From Ignavibacteriota bacterium (GTDB taxonomy: Bacteria; Bacteroidota; Ignavibacteria; UBA10030; SZUA-254), in assembly GCA_963727845.1 (NCBI GenBank), contig CAVSHI010000006.1:3935-67934 (forward strand): a DNA stretch of 64,000 nucleotides, read 5' to 3'. Shown here piece by piece: positions 2,257-16,015 of this stretch. Made by a program: the position numbers and the translations under genes. Positions within the stretch are counted from its first letter, which is position 1. Every line of letters begins with the position of its first letter. The notes under the pieces were generated by a model. It ran no database searches, was not told the DNA's origin, and saw only the letters and a program-made list of their open reading frames with translations.

Positions 2257-5200
2257 GTGGCTTCGGAAATGTTGGTGAAGCCGAAGAGGTGGCTCATCTT
2301 TGCGGCGATGATCTGCATTTCTGTTCGCATCGTCGTGGTGCAGAAATTGTTTGCGCAGGAGCTGAAATACACCGTCTCCGCGACGGGCTGGAATTCCGAT
2401 TCCCTCGGTAACCACCGGGCCGTCGTGCATGTCGATACTGCCGGTCGTGCGAATAGCGTGCTCATCCCGTGGAGAAGAAGGGATGGCAGGCCGGAGGATA
2501 AGAATATCATTGTGGAGGACGCGCGCACACATCGGCGGGTGATGAACGTGAAGAGGGATGTGGTCAACCGTGAATTCGGCAAACTTCTGTTCGAGCCGGC
2601 TTCCGGCGCCGGGGACTATTATGTTTACTACATGCCGTACAAATCCAACGGCAGGTCTAGTTATCCGAACAATACGTATCCGAAGCCGGAGCAAACCGCC
2701 GATTCAGCATGGCTTCAGACTGTGGAACGAACCCCGGTCATTCCGGAGGCTTCTGTTGTGGAGATTCAGTCCATCGATGAATTCAATACCTTCTATCCAA
2801 TGGAGGTGATTGCCACCGAGGCGGAAACGCGGGATATCATACAGAAAAATGCGGGTAAGACCTTTGTGGTCTTCCCGGAAGACCGGCTGCATCCCATCAA
2901 AATGACGGAGGATCTGCCACAGCGGTGGATTCCTGAGGGGAACAGAAATTCTTTTTCGGGAGAGGCGCATCGGGGTGAGTACTTTGCCTTTCAGCTTGGC
3001 GTGTATGCCATCCAGGGTCCATGCGATGTGAATATCGAATTTTCGGACCTTGTGTCTCCCTCGGGGAAATCAATTCCAGCGGATTCCATTTCTTGCATCA
3101 ATCTGCGAGGGATCAATTGGAACGGAGAGCCGGTGGCGATAACAATGAACATCCCTCAGAACCGTGTGCAAGCCCTCTGGTGCGGTATCGATGTCCCGCA
3201 GAATATGGAAGCCGGGGTGTACAATGGCATTGTAACCGTCGGCGCCAAAGACAGGGAACCGCAGCGTATCGATTTTACGCTCATAGTTAATGATACGTTG
3301 GCTGTCAACGGCGGCGTGGACGAGCCGTGGAAGCAGACCCGGTTGAAGTGGCTCAACTCGACACTCGCTCAAAAGAACGACGTGATTGCACCGTATACTC
3401 CGTTGATTCTCAAGAAAAGCGCTATCAGCTTGTTGGGAAGGGAAGTGCTCCTCAACAATGATGGATTCCCGAAGCAGATGCAGACCTTCTTCACTCCTGA
3501 GATGACCTCCATCTCGAAAAAACCGAAGAACATCCTCCGGAGGCCGATGGGAATCGTCATCGAAGATGAAAGCGGCATTCCCGTCAGATGGAAGATGGAA
3601 GGATTGAAATTCGTGCGGGTTGATTCCGGGACAATATCATGGACGGCGGTCAATACGTCGGCCGCGTTCCGGATGGACGTGCACGCCTCGTTGGAATTTG
3701 ACGGCTTTGTCTCGTACACTGTTGCGGTAACGGCTCTGAAGGATGTCGCAGTGAACGACATCCGGATGATCATCCCGATGAATCCGGACGCGGCGAAATA
3801 CATGATGGGATTAGGGCAAAAGGGTGGATTCCGCCCTGAAAGGTTCGAATGGGTGTGGGATGTCGCGCACAAGAATCAGGATGGCGCATGGATCGGGGGT
3901 GTCAATGCGGGTTTGCTCTATTCGCTTCGGGCTGAAAACTACTCCCGCCCGCTCAATACAAATTTCTATCTGCAGAAGCCGCTCAACCTCCCTCCTTCCT
4001 GGGGAAACGACGGTAGGGGTGGAATTCGTATTGCTCCGGAAGGAAACACGGTGACCGTCGACAATTATAGCGGTTCGCGTCAAATGAAGAAAGGTGAGAT
4101 ACTCCATTATGATTTCACTCTTCTCATCACTCCGTTCCATGCAATCAACACGGATTTCCAGTGGAGTAACCGCTTTTACCATAAGTACAGTCCGATCGAT
4201 ACCGTGATCGCGAATGGTGCGAATATCATCAACATCCACCATGCGACAAAAATCAATCCGTATATCAACTACCCGTTCATCGCCTACTGGGAGATGAAGG
4301 AGTACATCGATGAGGCGCACCGGAAGGGGCTGAAAGTAAAAATCTACAATACCGTCCGTGAATTGTCGAACAGAACGTACGAGCTGTTCCCTCTCCGCAG
4401 TCTAGGCCATGAAATTTATTCGTCCGGACGCGGCGGCGGTTTTTCATGGCTGCAGGAGCATCTTGGGGATGATTATATCCCGGCGTGGTTTGTGCCGGAG
4501 CTGAAGGACGCTGCCGTTGTCAACAGCGGCATGAGCCGGTGGCATAATTACTACGTCGAAGGCATGAACTGGCTGGTTCAGAACGTCGGCATCGACGGGC
4601 TGTACCTCGACGATGTGGCATTCGATCGCACCACGATGAAGCGCATTAAGAGAGTGCTCACCCGGGACGGACATCCCGGTATCATCGACCTTCATTCCGC
4701 GAACCAGTACAACAAGAACGACGGATTCATTAACAGCGCATGTCTCTACATGGAACATTTTCCGTATCTCAACCGGCTGTGGTTCGGCGAGTATTTCGAC
4801 TACGAGAACAATCCACCGGAATTTTTCCTGACTGAAGTGAGCGGCATCCCGTTCGGCCTTATGGGTGAGATGCTCCAAGGAGGCGGCAATCCGTGGCGCG
4901 GCATGGTGTACGGGATGACGAACCGCATGCCGTGGACCGAAAACAGCAATCCGCGGCCGATCTGGAAAGTATGGAATGATTTCGGCATGACGAATTCGCA
5001 GATGATCGGCTACTGGGTGGAGAACAATCCGGTTACGACGGATAGCAGGGACGTGCCGGTGACAGTCTACAAAAAGAAAGGCAAGGTGTTGATAGCGCTG
5101 GCGAGCTGGGCGAACCAAGACGTTGTCGTGAAATTGCGGATCAACTGGAAAGCCCTTGGCCTGCACTCCAATCGCGCGAAATTGTCCGCGCCGGCGGTGG

Positions 5201-8630: not shown

Positions 8631-10320
8631 ATGAAACGCATCGTTTTGATCGCCCTGATGTGTTGTGTTCTCTTCGGTTGTCTCGAAGCCCGGATTCGCC
8701 GTGAGGGAGAAATCAAGGCTGGATTGTTCGACGAACTGACGGAGCTGTATCCCGATACACGAATGCAGCAACCCGTAAAATCCCTTTCCGTTGACGCAGC
8801 CCGGGGAACAATCGCGGGAGTCCATCTCTTGATTACGGGGCTGAGCCGGAAAGCAACTGTGAGTTTCCGGGTGACCGACAGCAGCGGAACGCCGATGCAC
8901 GATGCCCGGTGGTACCGGATGATCGATGTTTTTGTGGGAGAGAACACTGGTCTCGACCTGGGCCACTGAAAAATTCAGCGGAATGATAAATCCTTACGTG
9001 ATCCGCCGGGCGCCTTTCAGAATTTATGACGCTCTCGATCCGATCGTGCCGCCTCTGGAGGTCGATTCCGGGACGACCGCCATACGACTGGAAGTGCCCG
9101 TCGATTCAACTCTCAAACCGGGAGAGTATTCCTACAAAATCCGGGTTGACGTGGGCAGCGAGACCGAAATGTTTGATTTCAACGTGCATGTCCATCGGGC
9201 TACGGTTCCGCCGGTTAGCCGGTCGACAATTTCCTACATAAACTGGATGAACCTGGACAACGTTTGCAAAGATCATGCAGTGGAAAAGTGGAGCGAACCG
9301 TTCTGGAATATGATGAGAAAGTATGCCGGTCTGATGGCCCGGGGACGCCAGAACACTTTCTGGTTCTTATGGCAGGATTTTTTTACATTTGACACATCGG
9401 GGACAATCGCCGAGTTCCGCAGGGACCGGCTGGAGAGGTTCATCCGCACGTTTCTTGATGCCGGATTCCGAACAATTCATGGCGCGCCGATTGCCCGACG
9501 GAAGGATTGGTTGTCGAATGATATGTTGTTGACGGTGAACCTCCCCGACGGAAAAGAAATTCCGGCCGTTTCAGACAAAGGCAAACGCATGATACTGGAA
9601 ATGGCCGGACGTATTGTCGCCATGATGAAAGAGAATCAATGGGATAACCGCTGGCTGCAGGGGATCTTTGATGAACCGACTGACGAGTTTGTGGATCGCT
9701 ACAAAGAAATAGTGGCGCTTCTGCGAGGAGCAAAACCGGACCTCGCCATCCTTGAGGCCACGATGACTGTCAAATTGAGCGGCTCAATTAATGTGTGGTG
9801 TCCCCAGGTGCAGGAATACCAGGCGCAACGCGAGTTCTTTGACCGGCGCAAAGCATCCGGAGACAGGGTGTGGGTATACACGTGCCTTGCGCCGGGCGGA
9901 CCCTGGCTCAACCGTTTATGCGACGAGGAACGTCTGCGGCAGGTGTACATCGGATGGGCGTGCGCAAAATTTGACCTGCAGGGATTCCTCCATTGGGGAC
10001 TCAATTTCCACGGCGACAAACCTTTCGAGGAACTCGTGAGATTTCATGCAGCGCCAAATACATTCCTGCCGGCAGGGGATTCCCACATCCTGTACCCCGG
10101 GAAAGACGGGCCGCTGTCGAGTCAGAGGTTCGAGGCGCATCGGATCGGGATGGAGGACTATGAACTCCTTGCCCAGCTGAAAGCTCGTGACACAGCGAAA
10201 GCACTCCTGATAATTGATAAGATTTTCCAGTCCTTTGACCGGTACAACAAGAATGTTGACGAATACCGGAGAGCAAAGGCTGTCCTGCTCGAATCGGTTG
10301 ATGCTTTTTCAGCCGAATAG
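8631..10320 (+). CDS. DUF4091/GH123-like lipoprotein, interrupted by an apparent +1 frameshift; it is spread across ORFs 8610-8969 and 8926-10320
   Basis: ATG 8631 starts a lipoprotein signal (MKRIVLIALMCCVLFGC). The two ORFs overlap by 44 nt in adjacent frames at a T5 run (8929-8933). The downstream frame carries a DUF4091-like C-terminus (TCLAPGGPWLNRLCDEERLRQVYIGWACAKFDLQGFLHWGLNFHGD). Confidence 0.5.
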
Positions 10321-10435
10321 GTTCGCGTCGTTGATAACCGCGCGCCGACCGATGGAGGTATCGCCGGATCGAGGGAAAAAGAAACATTAGTGTTTGGATA
10401 TTCGAAATTATGACATCGGAAAAATATAGAGGCTT

Positions 10436-10506
10436 GTCATTCTGAGGAGCGAAGCGACGAAGAATCTCATCCCGGTTTTGTCAGATCCTTCGCTCCGCTC
10501 AGGATG
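10436..10506. repeat. palindromic hairpin-pair repeat, family A copy 1 (unit GTCATnnTGAG..GAGCGAAG..AnnATCTC); its second arm is cut by the IS insertion and resumes at 11594
   Basis: The two arms are gtcattctgaggagcgaagcgacgaagaatctc and, inverted, gatccttcgctccgctcaggatg(ac). The same unit recurs at 15841-15911. Confidence 0.7.
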
Positions 10507-11586
10507 GGTATAATGTCCAAATTGTGTTGCTGTTTTTAGTGTGTGCATAATGACAAATACCACTGAAAGTATGCTGGACGGTGACGCTGTGCGAGACCTC
10601 GATGCTGACGATAGCGTTGTTTGAGTCGTGAGAAATACCCTTCCAAGGCATTGGTGGAACTTGCGATGAGTGGATTGTTCAGGTAATGAAACATGTTTGG
10701 AAGAGCTGCCAGTAACATGCTGCGGGCTCGTTTTAGATCGCTAAAGACGTATCCGTGCTCAGGAGTTACGGCGATATGGACGCCGTAGGTATGTTCCCAG
10801 GCATCTACACGCTTAAGAAAGTTTTTTCGATCCAATGATGAATGGATCGTTGTTACATCAAGGAAGATCTGGCGTAGATGTTTTGCGTCCGTGCGCTTGG
10901 GCATTCGTCGACACCAACTTAAGCCTTGACGCTGGATATGAACCAGGCAGCGCTGTAAAACGATTGTGGGCCATTGTCGACGTAATGCTTGGCTTAACGC
11001 CGGATTGCCATCAATAGTGGCATATTCTAGGGATAATCCCTGCTGTGCAAGGCACTGGAACAGTACACCCAAGTCTTGTGGTTGTTCCGAGACATTGTAC
11101 GCACCATGGAGCATTGTATGATTGGTCGCGTTCATGACGGCAAGGATCCCTTTGCGACGATTGATGAATGTCCCATCAACAATTGCGTAAACAGATTGAC
11201 CCAAGGATGGATGTGGTCCCGGCGGCGGTTGTTGCAGCCAGTACTCGATAATACGACGGATGGTTGATACACTGTGTACACTTTGTCTGGCAAGTTGACG
11301 TAGCGTGTATCCTTCAACCAGCCATCGTTGGAACCACACAAAGCTTCGTAGGCGTTTATTCGTTTTGTTTTGCCAGACGAAGGAGTGTTGACATGAATGA
11401 CACAACCATCGTTGACGCTGTGGGCGCAGTGTTCCATTACGTTTAACATGGACTGAGCCGCAATGAGGACAATGTTTTTTTCATAAATAATGGTCAATCA
11501 TTGAACCGTTTTAACCTTAGTATCCGTAAACGAATACAGGAACACAAATTACAGTCATCCGAGCAACACTTTTTGAGCATTATACC
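10507..11586 (-). mobile_element. IS1595-family insertion sequence, 1080 bp, with 9-bp perfect terminal inverted repeats (GGTATAATG / CATTATACC) and a 7-bp target-site duplication CAGGATG
   Basis: The terminal inverted repeats are at 10507-10515 and 11578-11586. The direct repeat CAGGATG flanks them at 10500-10506 and 11587-11593; it extends to 8 bp with one mismatch. The element carries a DDE transposase gene and has lower GC than its flanks. Confidence 0.75.
10536..11484 (-). CDS. IS1595-family DDE transposase (Zn-ribbon CPHC..CHSC, HTH, DDE domain); frameshifted in an A7 run right after the start codon
   Basis: ORF 10536-11405 has an HTH (GYTLRQLARQSVHSVSTIRRI) and the IS1595-type C-terminal motif TNALEGYFSRLKQRYRQHRG. 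The same frame continues upstream as KKHCPHCGSVHVKRNG...WLCHSCQ with no start codon. ATG 11484 lies in the adjacent frame just before the A7 run (11475-11481 on the + strand). Confidence 0.7.
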
Positions 11587-11649
11587 CAGGATGACAACTC
11601 CCTTAATAACTCCACGGAACTCCACTAATAATATAAGGAAACATCTCCC

Positions 11650-13668
11650 ATGACGATATGGATGTCAATTCGAAAGATTACCGTAGTGGTGGCTTATCTT
11701 CTTGCCGCGGTCGCAAACTCCGGATTTGCCGGGCAGAAAGTCACATGGCCTGATACGGTCTGGCTCACTTCATTAGATTTGACCAAAATGCATCAAGGGT
11801 GGGGGCAGCCGCAAAAGGACAAATCTGTTACTGAAAGACCATTGTCCATTGCAGGTCACAAGTTTCAGCGCGGAGTCGGCACGCACGCAGTAAGCCGGTT
11901 GTGGGTTGACCTGGGTGGAAATGCGGAGATGTTTCTTGCTTCCGTGGGGGTCGACGACGATGCATTGAATAATCCGGGTTCCGTCGTCTTCAAAGTTGTG
12001 GGAGACGGTAAGAAGCTCTGGGAGTCAGAAATCAAGAGGCCGGGCGATGCGGCAAAAAAAGTGAGCATCGACATCCATGGGATCAAATATCTCGTGCTTC
12101 TGGTCGGGGACGCCGGCGACGGAGTCAGCTATGACCACGCTGATTGGGCGGACGCGATGTTTGTCATGCATCGCGGGAAACCGGAAGCCATTGAACCACC
12201 CGGAGAAGAAAAAGTTATCTTGACTCCCCGACCGGGGGCAAGACCGCGCATTAATGGCGCTAAGATCTTCGGTGTTCATCCGGGCGCACCTTTTCTCTTT
12301 ACGATACCCGCAACGGGTATGCAGCCGATGAAGTATGCGGTGAAAAATCTGCCGACCGGCCTGGCCGTAAATTCTGAAACCGGGCAGATTACAGGGTCTC
12401 TCGACAAACCCGGTAAGTATTTCGTGAAGTTCGTGGTATCGAATGACTCGGGCGTTGCCGAGAGAGAATTCAGAATTGTTTGCGGCGACACGCTGGCCCT
12501 CACGCCTCATATGGGATGGAATAGCTGGTACGTTTGGGAGAACCACGTCACCGATGGAATCATGCGCGCCGCCGCCGATGCAATGGTGAAAACGGGCATG
12601 ATTAATCACGGTTACATGTACGTCAATGTTGATGATTGCTGGGCAGTGAAACCCGGATCCGACGATTCCGCTCTCGGGGGGCCGCCGAGAGACTCCCGCG
12701 GGATGGTTAATTCCAACAAGCGTTTTCCCGATATGAGAGCGCTGACCGCGTACATACATTCGAAAGGTCTGAAGGCGGGGATCTACACGTCGCCGGGACC
12801 GACGACCTGCGCCGGCCATGTCGGTGCGTACCAGCATGAGGAGCTTGATGTGCAACGCTTTGTCGAATGGGGATTCGATTTTTTGAAATACGATTGGTGT
12901 TCGTACGACGACGTTGCCCGCAGCCACAACCGCGAGGAATTGCAAAAGCCCTATCGGCTCATCGGAGGGATCCTGAAAAAGCAGAATCGCGACATCGTGT
13001 TAAACCTCTGTCAGTACGGCATGGGGAATGTCTGGGAGTGGGGCAGGGACGTGGGTGGAAACAGCTGGCGTACGGCAGGCGACCTCGGCGGCTCGTTCGA
13101 GGGAATCGCTGCCGCGCTGTTCCGCGATGGATTCGATGTCTATGCCAGGAACGACCTCCACCGGTATTCGGGTCCCGGCGGATGGAATGATCCGGATTAT
13201 CTCCTGCTGGGCTATCTGAGCAACTGGCATGGAGAGACGGTCCCCACACCGCTGACGCCGAATGAACAATACACTCATGTTTCACTCTGGTGTTTGCTCT
13301 CCGCTCCGCTCATCTTCAGCGGTGATATTACGCGGCTGGATGAATTCACTTTGAGTCTGCTGACCAATGACGAGGTCATTGAGGTCGACCAGGATCCGAT
13401 GGGAAAAGCGGGGAGACGCATCTGGCAGGATGAAGACGTTGAGGTCTGGGCAAAGGACCTGGAGGACGGTTCGAAGGCGGTCGGCTTATTCAACCGCGGC
13501 GAATTCGAGTCGACCGTGACTGCCAAGTGGAACGATCTGACTCTCGCCGGCGACCAGCGCGTCCGTGACCTCTGGCGGCAAAAAGACCTTGGAGTTTTCA
13601 AAAGCGAATTCTCTTCAGCGGTTCCCCGGCATGGAGTAGTTCTCCTGAGGATCTGGCCGGCGAACTAG
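11650..13668 (+). CDS. GH27 alpha-galactosidase / alpha-N-acetylgalactosaminidase with an N-terminal NPCBM (NEW2) carbohydrate-binding domain
   Basis: It has a signal peptide and an NPCBM-like N-terminal domain (GHKFQRGVGTHAVSRLWVDLGG...DHADWADAMF). The GH27 signature LTPHMGWNSWYVWENHV...VNVDDCW is present. Confidence 0.85.
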   Translation: MTIWMSIRKITVVVAYLLAAVANSGFAGQKVTWPDTVWLTSLDLTKMHQGWGQPQKDKSVTERPLSIAGHKFQRGVGTHAVSRLWVDLGGNAEMFLASVGVDDDALNNPGSVVFKVVGDGKKLWESEIKRPGDAAKKVSIDIHGIKYLVLLVGDAGDGVSYDHADWADAMFVMHRGKPEAIEPPGEEKVILTPRPGARPRINGAKIFGVHPGAPFLFTIPATGMQPMKYAVKNLPTGLAVNSETGQITGSLDKPGKYFVKFVVSNDSGVAEREFRIVCGDTLALTPHMGWNSWYVWENHVTDGIMRAAADAMVKTGMINHGYMYVNVDDCWAVKPGSDDSALGGPPRDSRGMVNSNKRFPDMRALTAYIHSKGLKAGIYTSPGPTTCAGHVGAYQHEELDVQRFVEWGFDFLKYDWCSYDDVARSHNREELQKPYRLIGGILKKQNRDIVLNLCQYGMGNVWEWGRDVGGNSWRTAGDLGGSFEGIAAALFRDGFDVYARNDLHRYSGPGGWNDPDYLLLGYLSNWHGETVPTPLTPNEQYTHVSLWCLLSAPLIFSGDITRLDEFTLSLLTNDEVIEVDQDPMGKAGRRIWQDEDVEVWAKDLEDGSKAVGLFNRGEFESTVTAKWNDLTLAGDQRVRDLWRQKDLGVFKSEFSSAVPRHGVVLLRIWPAN

Positions 13669-13689
13669 TAGGATCTGTGCAAACAGGGA

Positions 13690-13924
13690 TGTAGAGTCCG
13701 GTTCGAAACCGGACAACGGTAACGAAGAAGGATTTTCTGCTCTGTCCGATTACGAATCGGACTCTACCAAGCATAACTGGGGCTCGTTCCCAAATTCCAT
13801 TTGGGAAGACGGCGGACAGGTGTGCTCCCGACGTGCGTAGAGTCCGGTCCCCCGACCGGACATCCAATGTTGTCTTCTTGCGAGCGCGAATGTGCAACGC
13901 CGTCCGTTTACGAAACGAACTCTA
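13690..13924. repeat. cluster of four hairpin repeats of about 24 nt (family D, GTAGAGTC-CGnTT-loop-AAnCG-GAC) in alternating orientation
   Basis: Units lie at 13690-13713 (+), 13743-13766 (-), 13835-13860 (+) and 13901-13924 (-). The stems differ between units by compensatory changes: CGGTT/AACCG, CGATT/AATCG, CGGTC/GACCG, CGTTT/AAACG. Confidence 0.65.
13781..13806. repeat. 26-nt palindromic element, family C copy 1: GCTCGTTCCCAAATTCCATTTGGGAA
   Basis: It is a perfect 9-bp inverted repeat TTCCCAAAT-N3-ATTTGGGAA. The identical 26-mer occurs in reverse orientation at 61554-61579. Confidence 0.7.
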
Positions 13925-14278
13925 CGGCAAACTCGCTGGGAGGGAGCTTTGCTCCCGACCTGCCCCGGAAACGTCCATTTTCTGCAATGGTGGCGAGTGC
14001 GCTTGCTGGCCATCTCTGTGGGAGAACTCCGACCCACGACCAGCTCGCCGGAGTGGGCAAATGGGCAAAGAGTTCCGCTAGAACTCACGTGTGTGGTTCG
14101 GGCATGCTCTGGCATCCCGGAATTAAAATTTTCCCAGCATCTTCATTTTCGATTAAACCTTTCGAATCGGTGTGGGTCTGATAACATAGAAGCAAACTCA
14201 TAATGAGGGTTGTCAGTACTCCATAAACAATTGAAAGAGGTTCTGCAAAACATCGCGAATTTCAAGAAATTCTGAATA

Positions 14279-14345
14279 AAATCCCGTTTTTGAGATCCTC
14301 CAGTGTTCGCACTGTCCCCCTCCCAGTGCAGCACGAATCAAAAGC
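14279..14345 (+). other. long imperfect hairpin (16-bp stem AAAATCCCGTTTTTGA / TCAAAAGCGGGATTTT with a loop of about 44 nt) followed by a T-rich tract, upstream of the ArsR-family gene
   Basis: The inverted repeat is visible in the sequence. The loop has internal complementarity (CAGTG..CACTG). The element is not a canonical terminator. Confidence 0.4.
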
Positions 14346-14455
14346 GGGATTTTTATTTTTCCGAGGCCGACCTTAGTTCCTTCCTTGCTCACTGATCCCA
14401 ATTTGCATATTTGTCGATTTATTTCGATATTGATAGAAATAGATTTGGAAAAGCA

Positions 14456-15037
14456 ATGTCAGAGAATGAAATAACCACTGAACTTCTAACTCTCCTCAAA
14501 GGCCTGGCCGACAAGAACCGCCTCAAGATCATCGGCCTTCTGTCCCAGCGGCCGCGTGCGGTAGAGGAACTCTCCGCGTCTCTCAAACTGGGCGCCTCCA
14601 CAGTGTCCCATCATCTTTCCGTTCTGGGGAAAGCGGGACTCGTCGCGGGAAGGGTGCAGGGATACTATAGCATTTATTCCCTCCAGTCGGGCCCGCTGGA
14701 GGTAATGGCGAAACGGTTCTTGAAACGCGAAGAGCTGAAGGGATTAGCCGAGGATGTGCCCGGGGATGCGTACGACAAGAAAGTGCTCGCTGCATTTACG
14801 ACGCCGGAAGGCCGGATCAAAACCTTTCCGATGCAGGAGAAGAAATTTCTGGTCCTTGTTCGATACGTTCTTCGTGCGTTCGAGCCGGGTGTCCGGTATG
14901 CCGAGAAGCGCGTCAACGAAATTCTTTCCCGATTCAGCGAGGATACCGCGCGGCTCCGGCGGGCGCTTGTAGAGCATCGCTTCATGGCCCGGGAGGGCGG
15001 CGGCGGCGAGTATTGGCGTATCGATGTGGATAATTGA
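14456..15037 (+). CDS. ArsR-family transcriptional regulator fused to a DUF2087-like C-terminal domain
   Basis: The ArsR HTH is LKGLADKNRLKIIGLLSQRPRAVEELSASLKLGASTVSHHLSVLGKAGLV. The C-terminus matches the DUF2087 pattern (FPMQEKKFLVLVRYVLRAFEPGVRYAEKRVNEILS...LRRALVEHRFMAR). ATG 14456 is preferred over the TTG at 14411. TAGATTTG at 14440-14447 resembles an FCB -7 box. Confidence 0.75.
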   Translation: MSENEITTELLTLLKGLADKNRLKIIGLLSQRPRAVEELSASLKLGASTVSHHLSVLGKAGLVAGRVQGYYSIYSLQSGPLEVMAKRFLKREELKGLAEDVPGDAYDKKVLAAFTTPEGRIKTFPMQEKKFLVLVRYVLRAFEPGVRYAEKRVNEILSRFSEDTARLRRALVEHRFMAREGGGGEYWRIDVDN

Positions 15038-15306
15038 ACATTTTGAAGGAGAAAAAATCCGTGGACAAATATGTGAAAGTGATTGAATTCGAGAACGTGG
15101 CGGAAGCGACGTTGATTCAATCCATACTGGAAAATGAGGACATTCCATTCATCATACGGTCGTACCGCGATTCAGCGTACGATGGGTTGTTCCAATTTCA
15201 AAAAGGATGGGGTCGCCTGGAAGCCCCGGAAGAGTTCAAGGAACGGATTCTACTGTTGTACAAGGATATGAATCAGCAGGGTGGAAAGGAAATTCCCGGA
15301 GTATGA
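15034..15306 (+). CDS. DUF2007-like small protein (putative signal-transducing domain)
   Basis: It is 90 aa and matches the DUF2007 pattern (VKVIEFENVAEATLIQSILENEDIPFIIRS). Its ATGA start overlaps the stop of the previous gene. Confidence 0.5.
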   Translation: MNILKEKKSVDKYVKVIEFENVAEATLIQSILENEDIPFIIRSYRDSAYDGLFQFQKGWGRLEAPEEFKERILLLYKDMNQQGGKEIPGV

Positions 15307-15716
15307 CAATTAACTCTTCCCTGGAACGATTCGAGCTTCCTATCCAGGTCGTGCCTTCGGATATCGATCAACTCGGCCATGTGAACAACGTCGTCTACCT
15401 GCGATGGGTGCAGGATGCGGCTGTCGCCCATTGGCAGTCGGCCGCAACGGCGGCACAACAGGCGGCGGTTTACTGGGTCATCGTGCGCCACGAAATCGAC
15501 TACAAGCACCCCGCCCGGATGGGAGATTCGATCATTGCGCGCACCTGGGTTGGGAAAGGTGCACTCCACACCTTTGAACGCTATACTGAAATTCTGCGGG
15601 CACGTGACCGCCGCTTGCTGGCGCGTGCCTTGACATTATGGTGCCCCATTGATGCTCGAACGGGCAAGCCTGCCCAGGTGGGCGCCGACATCCGCGAACG
15701 GTTTTCCATTCCCTAA
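15303..15716 (+). CDS. acyl-CoA thioesterase, hotdog fold, 4-hydroxybenzoyl-CoA thioesterase/YbgC-like
   Basis: The start overlaps the upstream stop (ATGA). Hotdog thioesterase motifs are present (PSDIDQLGHVNNVVYLRWVQDA ... WVIVRHEIDYKHPARMGDSI). Confidence 0.7.
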   Translation: MTINSSLERFELPIQVVPSDIDQLGHVNNVVYLRWVQDAAVAHWQSAATAAQQAAVYWVIVRHEIDYKHPARMGDSIIARTWVGKGALHTFERYTEILRARDRRLLARALTLWCPIDARTGKPAQVGADIRERFSIP

Positions 15717-15751
15717 GAGATATTGTCCGACCATCTCAGGATTTGACGAAG

Positions 15752-15770
15752 AGGGGTTTGCCCCTTTTTG
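15752..15770 (+). terminator. candidate rho-independent terminator (AGGGG-TTTG-CCCCT followed by TTTT) after the thioesterase gene
   Basis: A 5-bp GC-rich stem, a tetraloop and a T-run lie 36 nt past the stop codon. Confidence 0.45.
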
Positions 15771-15840
15771 TCATAGTGACTTGTAACGTCCTGATTCCAC
15801 CACCCCTTTTGTCGAGGCTGTCCAAAAAGTCTCTTGTCTT

Positions 15841-15911
15841 GTCATGTTGAGCGAAGCGAAACATCTCTATGCACGAAAACGAGTGAGATTCTTCACTCCG
15901 TTCAGAATGAC
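15841..15911. repeat. palindromic hairpin-pair repeat, family A copy 2
   Basis: The two arms are gtcatgttgagcgaagcgaaacatctc and, inverted, gagattcttcactccgttcagaatgac. The unit is the same as at 10436-10506, with covarying stem dinucleotides. Confidence 0.7.
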
Positions 15912-16015
15912 AATTCCTTTTTCTTACTTTTTGGACGGCCCCTGTATAGACTTGGGAGATGGGGATAGAGGGGAGGTTTTACTTCTTGCGATGTCAATGT
16001 GATTCAAGTTCCATA

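Follow-up and report, generated by a model that had tools for sequence, protein, structure and literature searches.

An IS256-superfamily insertion sequence whose transposase gene starts out of frame at a conserved A run and whose copies share a stem-loop repeat as target

A mobile element in the 64-kb window (the whole stretch of DNA that was analysed, 64,000 nucleotides) carries a transposase gene with no start codon of its own and interrupts a hairpin. The locus raises the question of how such a gene is expressed and of what determined the site of insertion. The element is flanked by genes for a GH123 glycosidase and an alpha-galactosidase, and its outer parts are the following.

10507-11586, minus strand: insertion sequence of 1080 bp, IS256 superfamily (IS1249-like, zinc-ribbon type)
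10507-10532, plus strand: terminal inverted repeat at the 3' end of the transposase gene, GGTATAATGTCCAAATTGTGTTGCTG, with 21 of 26 positions complementary to the other end and the first nine perfect
11561-11586, minus strand: terminal inverted repeat at the 5' end of the transposase gene, GGTATAATGCTCAAAAAGTGTTGCTC
10500-10506: target-site duplication CAGGATG, left copy, matching the right copy at 7/7 positions
11587-11593: target-site duplication CAGGATG, right copy

The 1080-bp length, the perfect 9-bp ends and the CAGGATG repeats, all given in a preliminary description of this DNA, were confirmed with their coordinates by direct reading, GGTATAATG being found at 10507-10515 and its complement CATTATACC at 11578-11586. 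Beyond the first 9 bp the inverted repeats are imperfect (21/26 from the GG ends, or 27 nt at 85% with flanking bases counted). Because all targets carry an outer C and G, the duplication can be read as either 7 bp (ends GG..CC) or 5 bp (GGG..CCC). IS256 elements, as defined in ISfinder, have terminal inverted repeats of about 24-41 bp and a duplication of 8-9 bp; the inverted repeats of our element fit this definition, but the duplication of 7 (or 5) bp, which was found in 44 loci with perfect repeats, is shorter. The DNA identity of the window element to two metagenome copies, L001 and L003, is 97-98%. We conclude that the element is an intact, recently inserted IS256-superfamily insertion sequence of a zinc-ribbon lineage near IS1249.

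The preliminary description had placed the element in the IS1595 family. This membership was not upheld: there is no DDE_Tnp_IS1595 domain, and the catalytic region instead matches PF00872, IS1249 and the Zn-variant of IS256. A Pfam scan of the transposase gave no match to PF12762 (DDE_Tnp_IS1595, ISXO2-like), and no IS1595 family model was present among its NCBIfam matches, whereas PF00872 (Transposase_mut) matched residues 141-231 with 26.8 bits (cutoff 21). The best NCBIfam models were IS1249 (1e-41) and the IS256 Zn-variant (1.4e-33). The whole-protein cutoffs were missed for NF033544 IS1249 (143.4 versus 300), NF048019 IS256_Zn_var (116.4 versus 150) and NF033543 IS256 (53.8 versus 150). 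Since all three of these equivalog scores are under cutoff, the element represents a separate lineage within the IS256 superfamily. A PDB profile search matched 6xg8, a 'Mutator family transposase' (E 1.7e-4). When an AlphaFold model of the transposase (pLDDT 89.3) was submitted to Foldseek, the top five matches were ISCth4 transposase chains (E 5.5e-8 to 1.2e-5, probability 1.0, TM up to 0.52 over ~300 columns, and 0.51 at E 5.5e-8), followed by retroviral integrases at E > 2e-4; the best structural match of the predicted fold is thus the IS256-family ISCth4 transposase. The zinc ribbon scored above cutoff both with NF050000 (IS1/IS1595 Zn domain; 44.6 bits versus 28) and with NF048018 (IS256_N_4Cys; 42.8 versus 27), and below threshold with the Zn_ribbon_IS1595 Pfam model PF12760 (E 0.033, 14.6 bits versus 25.4). 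By these profile matches, likeness to IS1 and IS1595 is confined to the N-terminal zinc ribbon, which is of the type shared by these two families; the overall size is also similar to that of IS1595, but the catalytic domain is of the IS256 type and the predicted fold matches the ISCth4 transposase.

In the transposase, a 4-Cys zinc ribbon forms the N terminus; the other parts are a helical region for DNA binding and a DDE core of the Mutator type. In a 24-sequence alignment (A1), residues D103, D158, E281, C179 and H182 are invariant (numbers refer to the 315-residue recoded product). D103, D158 and E281 are candidate catalytic residues, with a C179-x2-H182 motif, as assigned by position and family signature rather than by superposition. 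The Mutator-type core and a CxxH after the second Asp are shared with the IS256 family (the IS1249 group, NF048019; ISCth4, PDB 6XG8/6XGW/6XGX). So are a single transposase gene and inverted repeats of ~25 bp starting with GG, and the N-terminal 4-Cys ribbon is like that of IS1249. Identity to IS1249 is, however, only 27%, and its transposase has 392 amino acids as compared to 315 here. The IS1249 element is also longer, ~1.3 kb in ISfinder versus 1080 bp, and its gene begins with an ordinary in-frame ATG without an A run, in contrast to the out-of-frame start and A7 of our element. The start region and the coding frames are laid out as follows.

10536-11480, minus strand: transposase open reading frame, 314 codons plus stop (KKHCPHCGS...LSLCTH), with no start codon of its own
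11482-11484, minus strand: ATG start codon, one base out of frame with the transposase frame
11475-11481, minus strand: A7 run (T7 on the plus strand), the proposed recoding site
11443-11484, minus strand: unshifted product, a 13-codon open reading frame (MKKTLSSLRLSPC, then a stop)

On the minus strand, the start region reads TT ATG AAAAAAA CAT TGT CCT CAT TGC. The transposase frame through it reads L-stop-K-K-H-C-P-H-C-G-S and is sealed by a TGA overlapping the ATG (the last two bases of the ATG and the first A of the run); upstream of the first Cys codon, this frame has no ATG, GTG or TTG. With one A less, the run would read MKKHCPHCGS, and a gain of two A's also joins the ATG to the transposase frame. 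The start-less frame, with the ATG at 11484 in the adjacent frame and A7 between them, is as the preliminary description had it. A scan of positions 10400-11700 for σ70 promoters and terminators gave background level only. A conserved GATACT box, read by eye 17 nt past a TTG-N3 hexamer, is under the threshold of the promoter scan.

Nine copies, the window element together with L001-L007 and L046 (66-98% amino acid identity), share the arrangement ATG/GTG, A7, CAT/CGT, TGT with the same one-base offset; the start codon is ATG in eight and GTG in one (L046). Each of the nine frames is exactly 314 codons long, with no indel or stop. Overall dN/dS is ~0.1-0.2; by pair, it is 0.06-0.5 in the first 27 codons, which lack an in-frame start, and 0.10-0.17 in the remainder, for those pairs that are diverged enough to be estimated. 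A7 is invariant even though synonymous sites approach saturation, with pS of 0.4-0.8 for the more distant pairs. In a wider survey, an in-frame ATG was found in 4 out of 104 full-length relatives (46 clusters at 70% identity). The remaining relatives have an A5-A9 run after an out-of-frame start, which is nearly always ATG and in a few cases GTG, at an offset of one base (n = 57) or two bases (n = 41), and both offsets are present within one 70% cluster. The distance from start codon to run is zero to three codons (0-9 nt), and the run abuts the first Cys codon in ~100/104 relatives; Chloroflexota relatives have C5A5 instead of a plain A run. A stop at most four codons from the first Cys seals the transposase frame at 72 of 117 loci, and the length of the unshifted frame varies from 6 to more than 100 codons. 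An in-frame ATG with the run retained occurs in L133 (A8, with a real extra upstream ATG) and L052-54; L012 is a further in-frame allele.

The same out-of-frame design is present on a finished isolate plasmid from Emticicia (NC_018749). Out-of-frame copies have also been active recently, giving multi-copy sets in a Nitrospirales chromosome (seven copies), a Zixibacteria MAG (four) and a Falkowbacteria MAG (four); copies within a genome are 99.7-100% identical, each has its own duplication, and all are out of frame. Judged by these comparisons, the A7 run is a conserved design common to ~100 relatives in many bacterial phyla, and not an error or a mark of a decayed gene. The preliminary description had offered a +1 slip or a sequencing error. 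The direction of the slip was right, while the error is refuted by the occurrence of start and A7 in eight independent copies (ATG in seven, GTG in L046) and by the ~100 out-of-frame relatives. Two further candidates were rejected. Long ATG-frame reading frames in high-GC copies (327-555 codons), considered as an alternative product, are stop-poor overlaps. Database 'full-length' homologues, considered as proof of ordinary in-frame starts, proved to be an artefact with TGA read as sense in one case and the real extra upstream ATG of L133 in another.

As an explanation of the whole, we favour, with good though not full confidence, an IS256-superfamily element that has a slippage-gated transposase and homes to a stem-loop repeat. 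Translation would begin at the out-of-frame ATG, with the A run zero to three codons downstream, and full-length transposase would come solely from a minority of messages or ribosomes, those with a change of frame in the run. Since unshifted translation gives only a short peptide, the run would act as a built-in throttle on transposase supply and may thereby limit transposition. The conserved arrangement argues for programmed recoding, most likely by RNA polymerase slippage, so that the frame would be changed at the run and at the RNA level, here by loss of one A (MKKHCPHC...) or gain of two. The N-terminal peptide would be MKKHCPHCGSVHVK if one base is lost or the ribosome shifts by +1, and MKKKHC... 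if two bases are gained or the ribosome shifts by -2. Two points count against the model: a run of seven A's is at the short end of efficient slippage in E. coli, and in some relatives the run is no longer than A5 or A6. In IS1447, slippage on A runs goes both ways and needs no more than seven A's (PMC6211511), and among users of A-run slippage the IS elements form the largest class (PMC1088944).

The frame could instead be changed by the ribosome, through a +1 or -2 movement of tRNA-Lys on AAA AAA A after initiation in our element and, in the offset-2 relatives, a classical -1 shift on A_AAA_AAA/G. Shifting on A-rich heptamers is well established (PMC3711429), tRNA-Lys re-pairs perfectly in each frame of the run, and many offset-2 relatives have A8-A9, which contains A_AAA_AAA in any phase. 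Two mechanisms would, however, be needed for two offset classes that interconvert within one 70% cluster, while polymerase slippage accounts for both classes by one feature, and the +1 class lacks the adjacent stop or rare codon typical of known +1 sites, the next codon being ACA. No stimulatory structure was found either: the seven close copies have no conserved RNA stem-loop beside the run (consensus energy -0.24 kcal/mol), and because this search gave no support, no stimulator is claimed. We therefore consider a ribosomal shift unlikely. Still less credit is given to a phase switch at the DNA level, whereby replication slippage would make a rare 'on' allele that mobilises 'off' copies in trans and is then purged, so that surveys see 'off'. 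Such a switch would agree with homopolymer runs being classical phase-variation sites (PMC3711429), with the presence of A7, A8 and A9 within one cluster, and with the rare in-frame alleles L133, L012 and L052-54. It is at odds with the three multi-copy sets (7, 4 and 4 copies, 99.7-100% identical), which include no 'on' copy, with the 4/104 relatives in frame where free length drift predicts one third, with the invariance of A7 in the nine-copy clade despite near-saturated synonymous sites, and with the stop that abuts the run and actively seals the transposase frame at 72/117 loci.

If A7 came from an error in sequencing or assembly, or from a new inactivating mutation, the copy would be ordinary (A6) or dead. 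Homopolymers are indeed error-prone, and one A less gives a perfect MKKHC... start, but eight independent assemblies, made from different samples, repeat A7 and its offset in diverged contexts, the reading frame is intact and under purifying selection, and the duplication is perfect; we give this reading almost no weight. It is also most improbable that there is no recoding and that translation starts at an internal TTG (11405, MCHSCQ..., with the first CxxC lost) or at a non-canonical codon in the transposase frame. Gene callers do choose internal starts (P0001, 289 aa; many 302-aa calls), and a truncated CDS is annotated by RefSeq in Emticicia; yet purifying selection in the transposase frame acts on the 27 codons before the TTG, where both CxxC pairs are kept, and the interval from the TGA to the first Cys holds only AAA AAA CAT, none of which is near-cognate to AUG.

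Polymerase slippage, the preferred mechanism, is known from other elements with A runs, namely IS1447 of the IS3 family, Deinococcus and Nostoc insertion sequences and a Roseiflexus IS630 element. As here, the run stands at a frame junction and is kept amid divergence, and the C5A5 of the Chloroflexota relatives resembles the T5C5 motif of the Roseiflexus element (PMC5009743). In those elements, however, a mid-gene shift fuses a functional orfA (DNA-binding or regulator) to orfB, whereas in our group the shift would occur zero to three codons past the start, no separate product comes from the upstream 'ORF', and the entire transposase, its DNA-binding ribbon included, would depend on the shift. 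A 2016 recoding review gives frameshifting for IS1, IS3, IS5 and IS630, and not for IS256; a literature search for IS1249 or IS256 with frameshift or slippage found no relevant paper. A start-proximal recoding throttle is thus not recorded for the IS256 family. If the model is true, IS256-type elements would join the short list of frame-change families (IS1, IS3, IS5, IS630), with a shift gating the entire protein at its first codons, and would provide a simple testable model of a slippage throttle.

The insertion site consists of two units of a repeat, one of which is interrupted, and a second hairpin of the same family lies further along in the window.

10436-10468, plus strand: repeat unit 1 (arm 1 of the large hairpin), GTC-ATTCT-GAGGAGCGAAGCGACGA-AGAAT-CTC, itself a small stem-loop whose ATTCT/AGAAT stem covaries in the family
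10484-10506, minus strand: most of repeat unit 2 (arm 2), interrupted by the element; joined to the AC at 11594-11595, its minus-strand sequence is GTCATCCTGAGCGGAGCGAAGGATC
11594-11595: AC, the final two bases of the hairpin tip, separated from the rest by the element
15841-15911: two-unit hairpin of this repeat family without an insertion, a paralogous 'empty' target (GTCATGTTGAG...CTCCGTTCAGAATGAC)

When the element is removed and the flanks are joined, a two-armed hairpin, TTGTCATTCTGAGGAGCGAAGCGACGAAGAATCTC...GATCCTTCGCTCCGCTCAGGATGACAA, is obtained. As single-stranded DNA the rejoined site folds at -17.6 kcal/mol, compared to -9.1 +/- 2.4 kcal/mol for 200 shuffled sequences, none of which equalled it (z = -3.55). 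Sequence and folding energy thus agree with the earlier claim that the joined flanks restore a palindromic hairpin. The hairpin arm pattern has three matches in the window versus 0.46 expected, and the 64-kb window contains only two hairpins of the family. An Rfam scan of positions 10300-16000 revealed nothing relevant, with one chance miRNA match at E 0.49.

All reconstructed targets of related copies (50/50) fit GT-CAYNNYG-AG at the base of a small stem-loop repeat, with the consensus GT-CATTNYG-AG (counts, n = 50: G49 T50 C50 A50 T47 T40.. G50 A49). The window copy fits the pattern too. The same insertion point in all 50 sustains the view that the element targets a REP-like palindrome and belongs with the repeat-hunting insertion sequences. 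Target choice is nearly absolute. Among 74 loci with defined ends, the duplication is 7/7 in 44 and 6/7 in eight; 14 metagenome loci are under 6/7, and their mismatched flanks are probably due to chimeric assemblies or recombination between copies. Insertions are in one orientation in 26 cases and in the other in 18, while seven have flanks fitting both and one is unclassified. The exact complement of the 5-base core occurs within 60 nt downstream in 37/51 targets, versus 5/51 upstream (control), and the target stems fall into five covarying types. The large two-armed hairpin was rejected as the conserved target: the two-armed test failed in most loci (only 5/52 ungapped and 9/51 gapped passed), and the single-unit test succeeded. 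The conserved target is therefore a single small stem-loop unit. From this pattern, the ten bases GTCATTNYGA, where the stem of the repeat unit begins, would be the motif that the transposase recognises through some part of the protein (repeat unit: GTC-stem-GAGCGAAGCGA-stem'-CTC; written out, GTCATTCTGAG, also GTCATTCTGAGCGAAGCGAAGAATCTC); insertion would be between GT and C in either orientation, with a 7-bp duplication CAYNNYG.

Known REP-targeting insertion sequences include IS1397/ISKpn1 and ISPsy8 (IS3), ISPpu9/ISPpu10/ISPa11/IS621 (IS110), ISRm22 (IS4) and, with a looser association, ISRm5 of the IS256 family (PMC1525189). In common with them, independent copies of our element are found at one fixed position of an intergenic palindrome, in harmless sites with near-identical flanks. 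The repeat is different, however, and is found in many phyla rather than in one genus; the insertion point is the stem foot and not the loop, the enzyme is of the DDE type, the duplication is 7 bp, and both orientations occur. Such strict site specificity also sets the element apart from the IS256 family. The intergenic position of the repeat units makes them a safe landing place for the element. A literature search gave no published name for the repeat, the matches to its sequence being primers only, and no Rfam family matches it. On balance, we lean towards the existence of a cross-phylum IS256-type group whose start-less transposase gene would be expressed only by a polymerase or ribosome slip on an A run at most three codons from an out-of-frame start, and which homes almost absolutely to a ubiquitous, unnamed stem-loop repeat. 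Homing to one cross-phylum repeat would, if this reading is true, imply long co-evolution of the lineage and the repeat family. In hosts ranging from Bacteroidota to candidate phyla, a DDE enzyme that recognises ten bases where a stem-loop begins would amount to a compact natural site-specific integrator, and the insertion pattern points to an abundant repeat family.

An empty site (hairpin without the element), proposed in the preliminary description as a check, was not found at the orthologous locus. The orthologous GH123 to alpha-galactosidase spacers of two close relatives, L129 and L130 (106-107 bp; gene products in one 90% cluster), have neither hairpin nor element. Neither the two flanking proteins nor P0121 had an exact match, and cluster members were used instead. 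L131 has a different repeat arm.

The out-of-frame design also bears on annotation. Pipelines call such genes truncated, split or pseudogenes, and a rule that takes the A run into account would correct hundreds of records. The RefSeq start of the Emticicia copy is ~90 codons late, and many database entries start past the first CxxC or read the TGA as sense.

The element at 10507-11586 of the window is explained as an ordinary kind, an insertion sequence in a repeat, and its family, conservation and target were established computationally. Two properties are unusual: a start-proximal slippery run that is kept out of frame by the whole lineage, and the targeting of one stem-loop repeat with near-absolute precision across hosts of many phyla. 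Each is a variation on a known principle. The features of the locus are as follows.

End at 10320: GH123-type glycosidase gene, flanking the element
10500-10506: CAGGATG, directly outside the left end
10507-10515: left terminal 9 bp, GGTATAATG
10538-10536, minus strand: stop of the transposase ORF (314 codons, open back to the codon after ATG)
11578-11586: exact complement of the left terminal 9 bp
11587-11593: CAGGATG, directly outside the right end, followed by AC
11650-13668: NPCBM alpha-galactosidase gene, starting at 11650 and flanking the element
15841-15911: uninterrupted hairpin with two units of the target's repeat family (GTCATGTTGAGCGAAGCGAAACATCTC ... GAGATTCTTCACTCCGTTCAGAATGAC), the sole other copy in the 64-kb window

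At the level of sequence anatomy, the preliminary description of a 1080-bp element with 9-bp terminal inverted repeats and flanking CAGGATG is confirmed in every detail: the coordinates hold on reading the sequence, and the two 9-bp ends bound 1080 bp. The inverted repeats extend imperfectly beyond this (21/26 from the GG ends, or 27 nt at 85% with flanking bases counted). Excision of the element and one CAGGATG yields the junction TTGTCATTCTGAGGAGCGAAGCGACGAAGAATCTC...GATCCTTCGCTCCGCTCAGGATGACAA, and the rejoined site folds as single-stranded DNA at -17.6 kcal/mol versus -9.1 +/- 2.4 for shuffles (z = -3.55), in agreement with the earlier statement that joining the flanks restores a hairpin arm. 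The site consists of two repeat units in inverted orientation, with the element in the outer foot of the second unit.

Membership in the IS1595 family, originally proposed because of a CxxC...CxxC ribbon, is not upheld. The ribbon does match the IS1/IS1595 type (NF050000, 44.6 bits versus a cutoff of 28), and it also matches the NCBIfam model of the IS256 N-terminal 4-Cys domain. In the catalytic part, Pfam matches were to Transposase_mut (PF00872, above gathering score) and a MULE domain, with the IS1595 DDE domain absent from the Pfam matches of the transposase. The top NCBIfam models, IS1249 (1e-41) and "IS256 family transposase, variant Zn-binding type" (1.4e-33), both scored under their curated cutoffs. 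A profile of 24 homologues matched PDB 6xg8, "Mutator family transposase", and the best five Foldseek matches of an AlphaFold model (mean pLDDT 89.3) were ISCth4 transposase chains (E down to 5.5e-8, TM about 0.5), with retroviral integrases ranking lower. Residues D103, D158, E281 and C179-x2-H182, which are the Mutator/IS256 signature, are invariant across the homologue alignment. Based on these domain, profile, structure and signature data, we conclude that the element is a distinct lineage inside the IS256 superfamily, and a small one (1.08 kb, 315 aa). It has an IS1249-style ribbon but is just 27% identical to IS1249, and IS1249 proper has an ordinary in-frame ATG without an A run, whereas the window lineage has an out-of-frame start and a run.

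To characterize the target, element ends were placed in 74 related copies, of which 44 had a perfect 7-bp duplication and 8 matched at 6/7 positions. The aligned targets (n=50) read G49 T50 / C50 A50 T47 T40 N Y G50 / A49 G33, that is, a motif GTCATTNYGA with the insertion point after GT. Insertions were found in both orientations (26 one way, 18 the other, 7 with flanks fitting both, 1 unclassified). The five inner bases of the duplication occurred in five main versions (ATTCT, ATTGC, ATCCT, ATTTC, ATTCC), and their exact complement lay at most 60 nt downstream in 37 of 51 targets, versus 5 of 51 in the upstream control; spacing in the commonest form was 10 nt. From these downstream complements and the covarying stems, the target is a small stem-loop with the layout GTC-[stem]-GAGCGAAGCGA-[stem']-CTC. 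Since all targets have C/G at the two outer positions of the duplication and the element runs from GG to CC, the duplication could be 7 bp or, equally, 5 bp with GGG/CCC ends. Unequal flanks, each of them a repeat foot, were seen at 14 loci and suggest recombination or inversion among copies, or metagenome assemblies that are chimeric over the repeat. At locus L007 (about 600-1720) the feet are inverted (CGCAATG, element, CATTGCG); flanks with two different feet also occur at L002, L003, L058 and L080. REP targeting is known in IS3, IS110, IS4, IS5 and, loosely, IS256 members (PMC1525189), but the repeat, the insertion point and the cross-phylum spread are different here. No Rfam family matched the repeat, and no published name for it was found in the literature.

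An empty site, i.e., the hairpin without the element, was not found at this locus in four relatives (L129-L132). The target reconstruction, and with it the initial reading that the element targets a palindrome, is instead supported by the paralogous hairpin at 15841-15911 and by fifty equivalent insertions at other sites. A database protein encoded on a 570-kb contig matches the alpha-galactosidase at 100% identity, and the 90% cluster of the latter includes proteins of other assemblies, one of which is named as a Bacteroidota MAG. In two of these relatives, L129 and L130, the spacer between the flanking genes measures 106-107 bp and contains no hairpin and no element; both were therefore added in the window's lineage. 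In L131 (1-60), a REP-like arm of another kind (...GGCTCAGGGTGAC) precedes the orthologous alpha-galactosidase gene, and a further inserted sequence is present in L132. The spacer attracts repeats, different ones having gathered in different lineages. The alpha-galactosidase genes of L130 (about 4085-4220) and L132 (about 455-600) carry, just after the signal peptide, an in-frame insertion of ~156 nt with internal palindromes (ccccttggtaagggga..., cccccttt..aaggggga) that the window gene lacks; it resembles a small mobile repeat that the coding region tolerates.

Read on the minus strand, the start of the transposase gene is TT ATG AAAAAAA CAT TGT CCT CAT TGC. The transposase frame is closed upstream by a TGA that joins the last two ATG bases to the first A of the run, and has no ATG, GTG or TTG ahead of the zinc-ribbon cysteines; the start-less frame, with an ATG in another frame across A7, was thus correctly described before. 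The suggestion of a sequencing error did not survive comparison with eight close copies from other samples (amino acid identity 96% for L001, 78% for L002, 98% for L003, 84% for L004, 66% for L005-L007, and 78% for L046, a Bacteroidota MAG). All eight have ATG (GTG in L046), A7, CAT or CGT, and TGT, and keep the one-base offset and the TGA seal. Together with the window copy, they form nine ORFs of exactly 314 codons with zero indels or stops. Synonymous divergence in the more distant pairs is high, up to near saturation (pS 0.4-0.8). Where divergence sufficed for an estimate, dN/dS was 0.10-0.17 in the gene body and 0.06-0.5 in the first 27 codons, which have no start codon of their own; this stretch must therefore be translated in the frame of the transposase. 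AAA is kept at both lysine codons in 9/9 copies. The A7 run is thus a conserved design and no sign of damage.

More distant relatives extended the comparison to 117 start regions (drawn from two scans of the collection, one annotated plasmid and two additional look-ups), in two groups: one at 30-35% identity, of the KKRCWACGS type, and one at 37-62%, from MAGs of Nitrospirales, Zixibacteria, Ignavibacteria, Chloroflexota, Falkowbacteria, Gracilibacteria, Syntrophaceae and Omnitrophota. An in-frame ATG was present in only 4 of 104 full-length ORFs, in 3 of 46 clusters (70% identity); this fraction, 4%, compares with one third expected under free drift of run length. The remaining ORFs have an out-of-frame start codon (nearly always ATG, in a few cases GTG) 0-9 nt upstream of five to nine A's abutting the first Cys codon. 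Among the 104, repair requires minus one base in 57 and plus one base in 41, and one single 70% cluster holds both offset classes, with A7, A8 and A9. The transposase frame is stop-closed within 4 codons of the first Cys at 72 of 117 loci, the stop frequently overlapping ATG (ATGA) or the run (TAAAAAA). Copies within a genome (7 in a Nitrospirales chromosome, 4 in a Zixibacteria MAG, 4 in a Falkowbacteria MAG) are out of frame, 99.7-100% identical per genome and at separate sites, most with their own perfect duplication; out-of-frame copies are thus the mobile ones as well.

In Emticicia oligotrophica DSM 17448, a finished plasmid (NC_018749.1; L126, 19234-20181) has the same out-of-frame design, with ATG followed by A8, which rules out an assembly artefact as its source. 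RefSeq annotates only the last 222 codons there, starting ~90 codons past the zinc ribbon; the annotation pipeline missed the out-of-frame ATG and A8 start further up. The database protein P0019 (L134, 100-135) seems to have an intact N-terminus, MVRSWEKKTC..., because TGA was taken as sense; the DNA has the usual out-of-frame ATGA and A7, and some "full-length" family entries in protein databases are therefore artefacts. P0044 (L133, 395-430), which has an A8 run, shows an additional ATG four codons further up and in the transposase frame, and also keeps the usual out-of-frame ATG adjoining the run; the in-frame state is rare. In five Chloroflexota MAG copies (L069, L084, L091, L092, L100), C5A5 (ATGTCCCCCAAAAAC) replaces the long A run and the gain of one base is needed, which recalls the T5C5 slippage motif of a Roseiflexus IS630 element from the same phylum.

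A switch of frame is needed after the ATG and ahead of the first Cys codon, an interval in which the A run is the sole conserved feature. We favor slippage of RNA polymerase, which shortens and lengthens runs, so that one device would serve both offset classes; in IS1447, seven A's suffice for slippage in both directions at about 16% each (PMC6211511), and IS elements are the largest known user class of A-run slippage (PMC1088944). Productive messages of the window element would be A6 (MKKHCPHC...) or A9 (MKKKHC...). A ribosomal shift is a distinctly weaker candidate: it would be a classical -1 shift on A_AAA_AAA in the other class but +1 or -2 in the window element, so that two mechanisms are needed, and the +1 class is without the stop or hungry codon usual at such sites. 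A DNA-level phase switch with mobilization in trans is also less likely, given zero "on" copies among the near-identical out-of-frame genomic copies and a strictly invariant A7 in the close clade.

We infer the frame change itself, the level at which it would act (RNA or ribosome) and its regulatory role. The shift would cap the transposase supply and produce no second functional protein, because the unshifted product is a short peptide (13 codons in the window element) of variable length among relatives. A comprehensive review lists frameshifting only in IS1, IS3, IS5 and IS630 (PMC5009743); there, a mid-gene shift fuses a regulator to the catalytic domain, whereas here it would be a start-proximal limiter only. 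A literature search for IS1249 or IS256 with frameshift or slippage returned nothing relevant. A conserved RNA hairpin adjoining the run was looked for and not found, and no stimulator is therefore claimed. In most family members a small conserved palindrome, TGAAAC-N2-4-GTTTCA or AAACCGGTTT, does precede the start codon by ~12-25 nt (window 11507-11520, minus strand TTAAAACGGTTCAA; equivalent position in L005-L126). Its distance from the run is too great for a slippage hairpin; the transposase or a protein of the host may bind to it.
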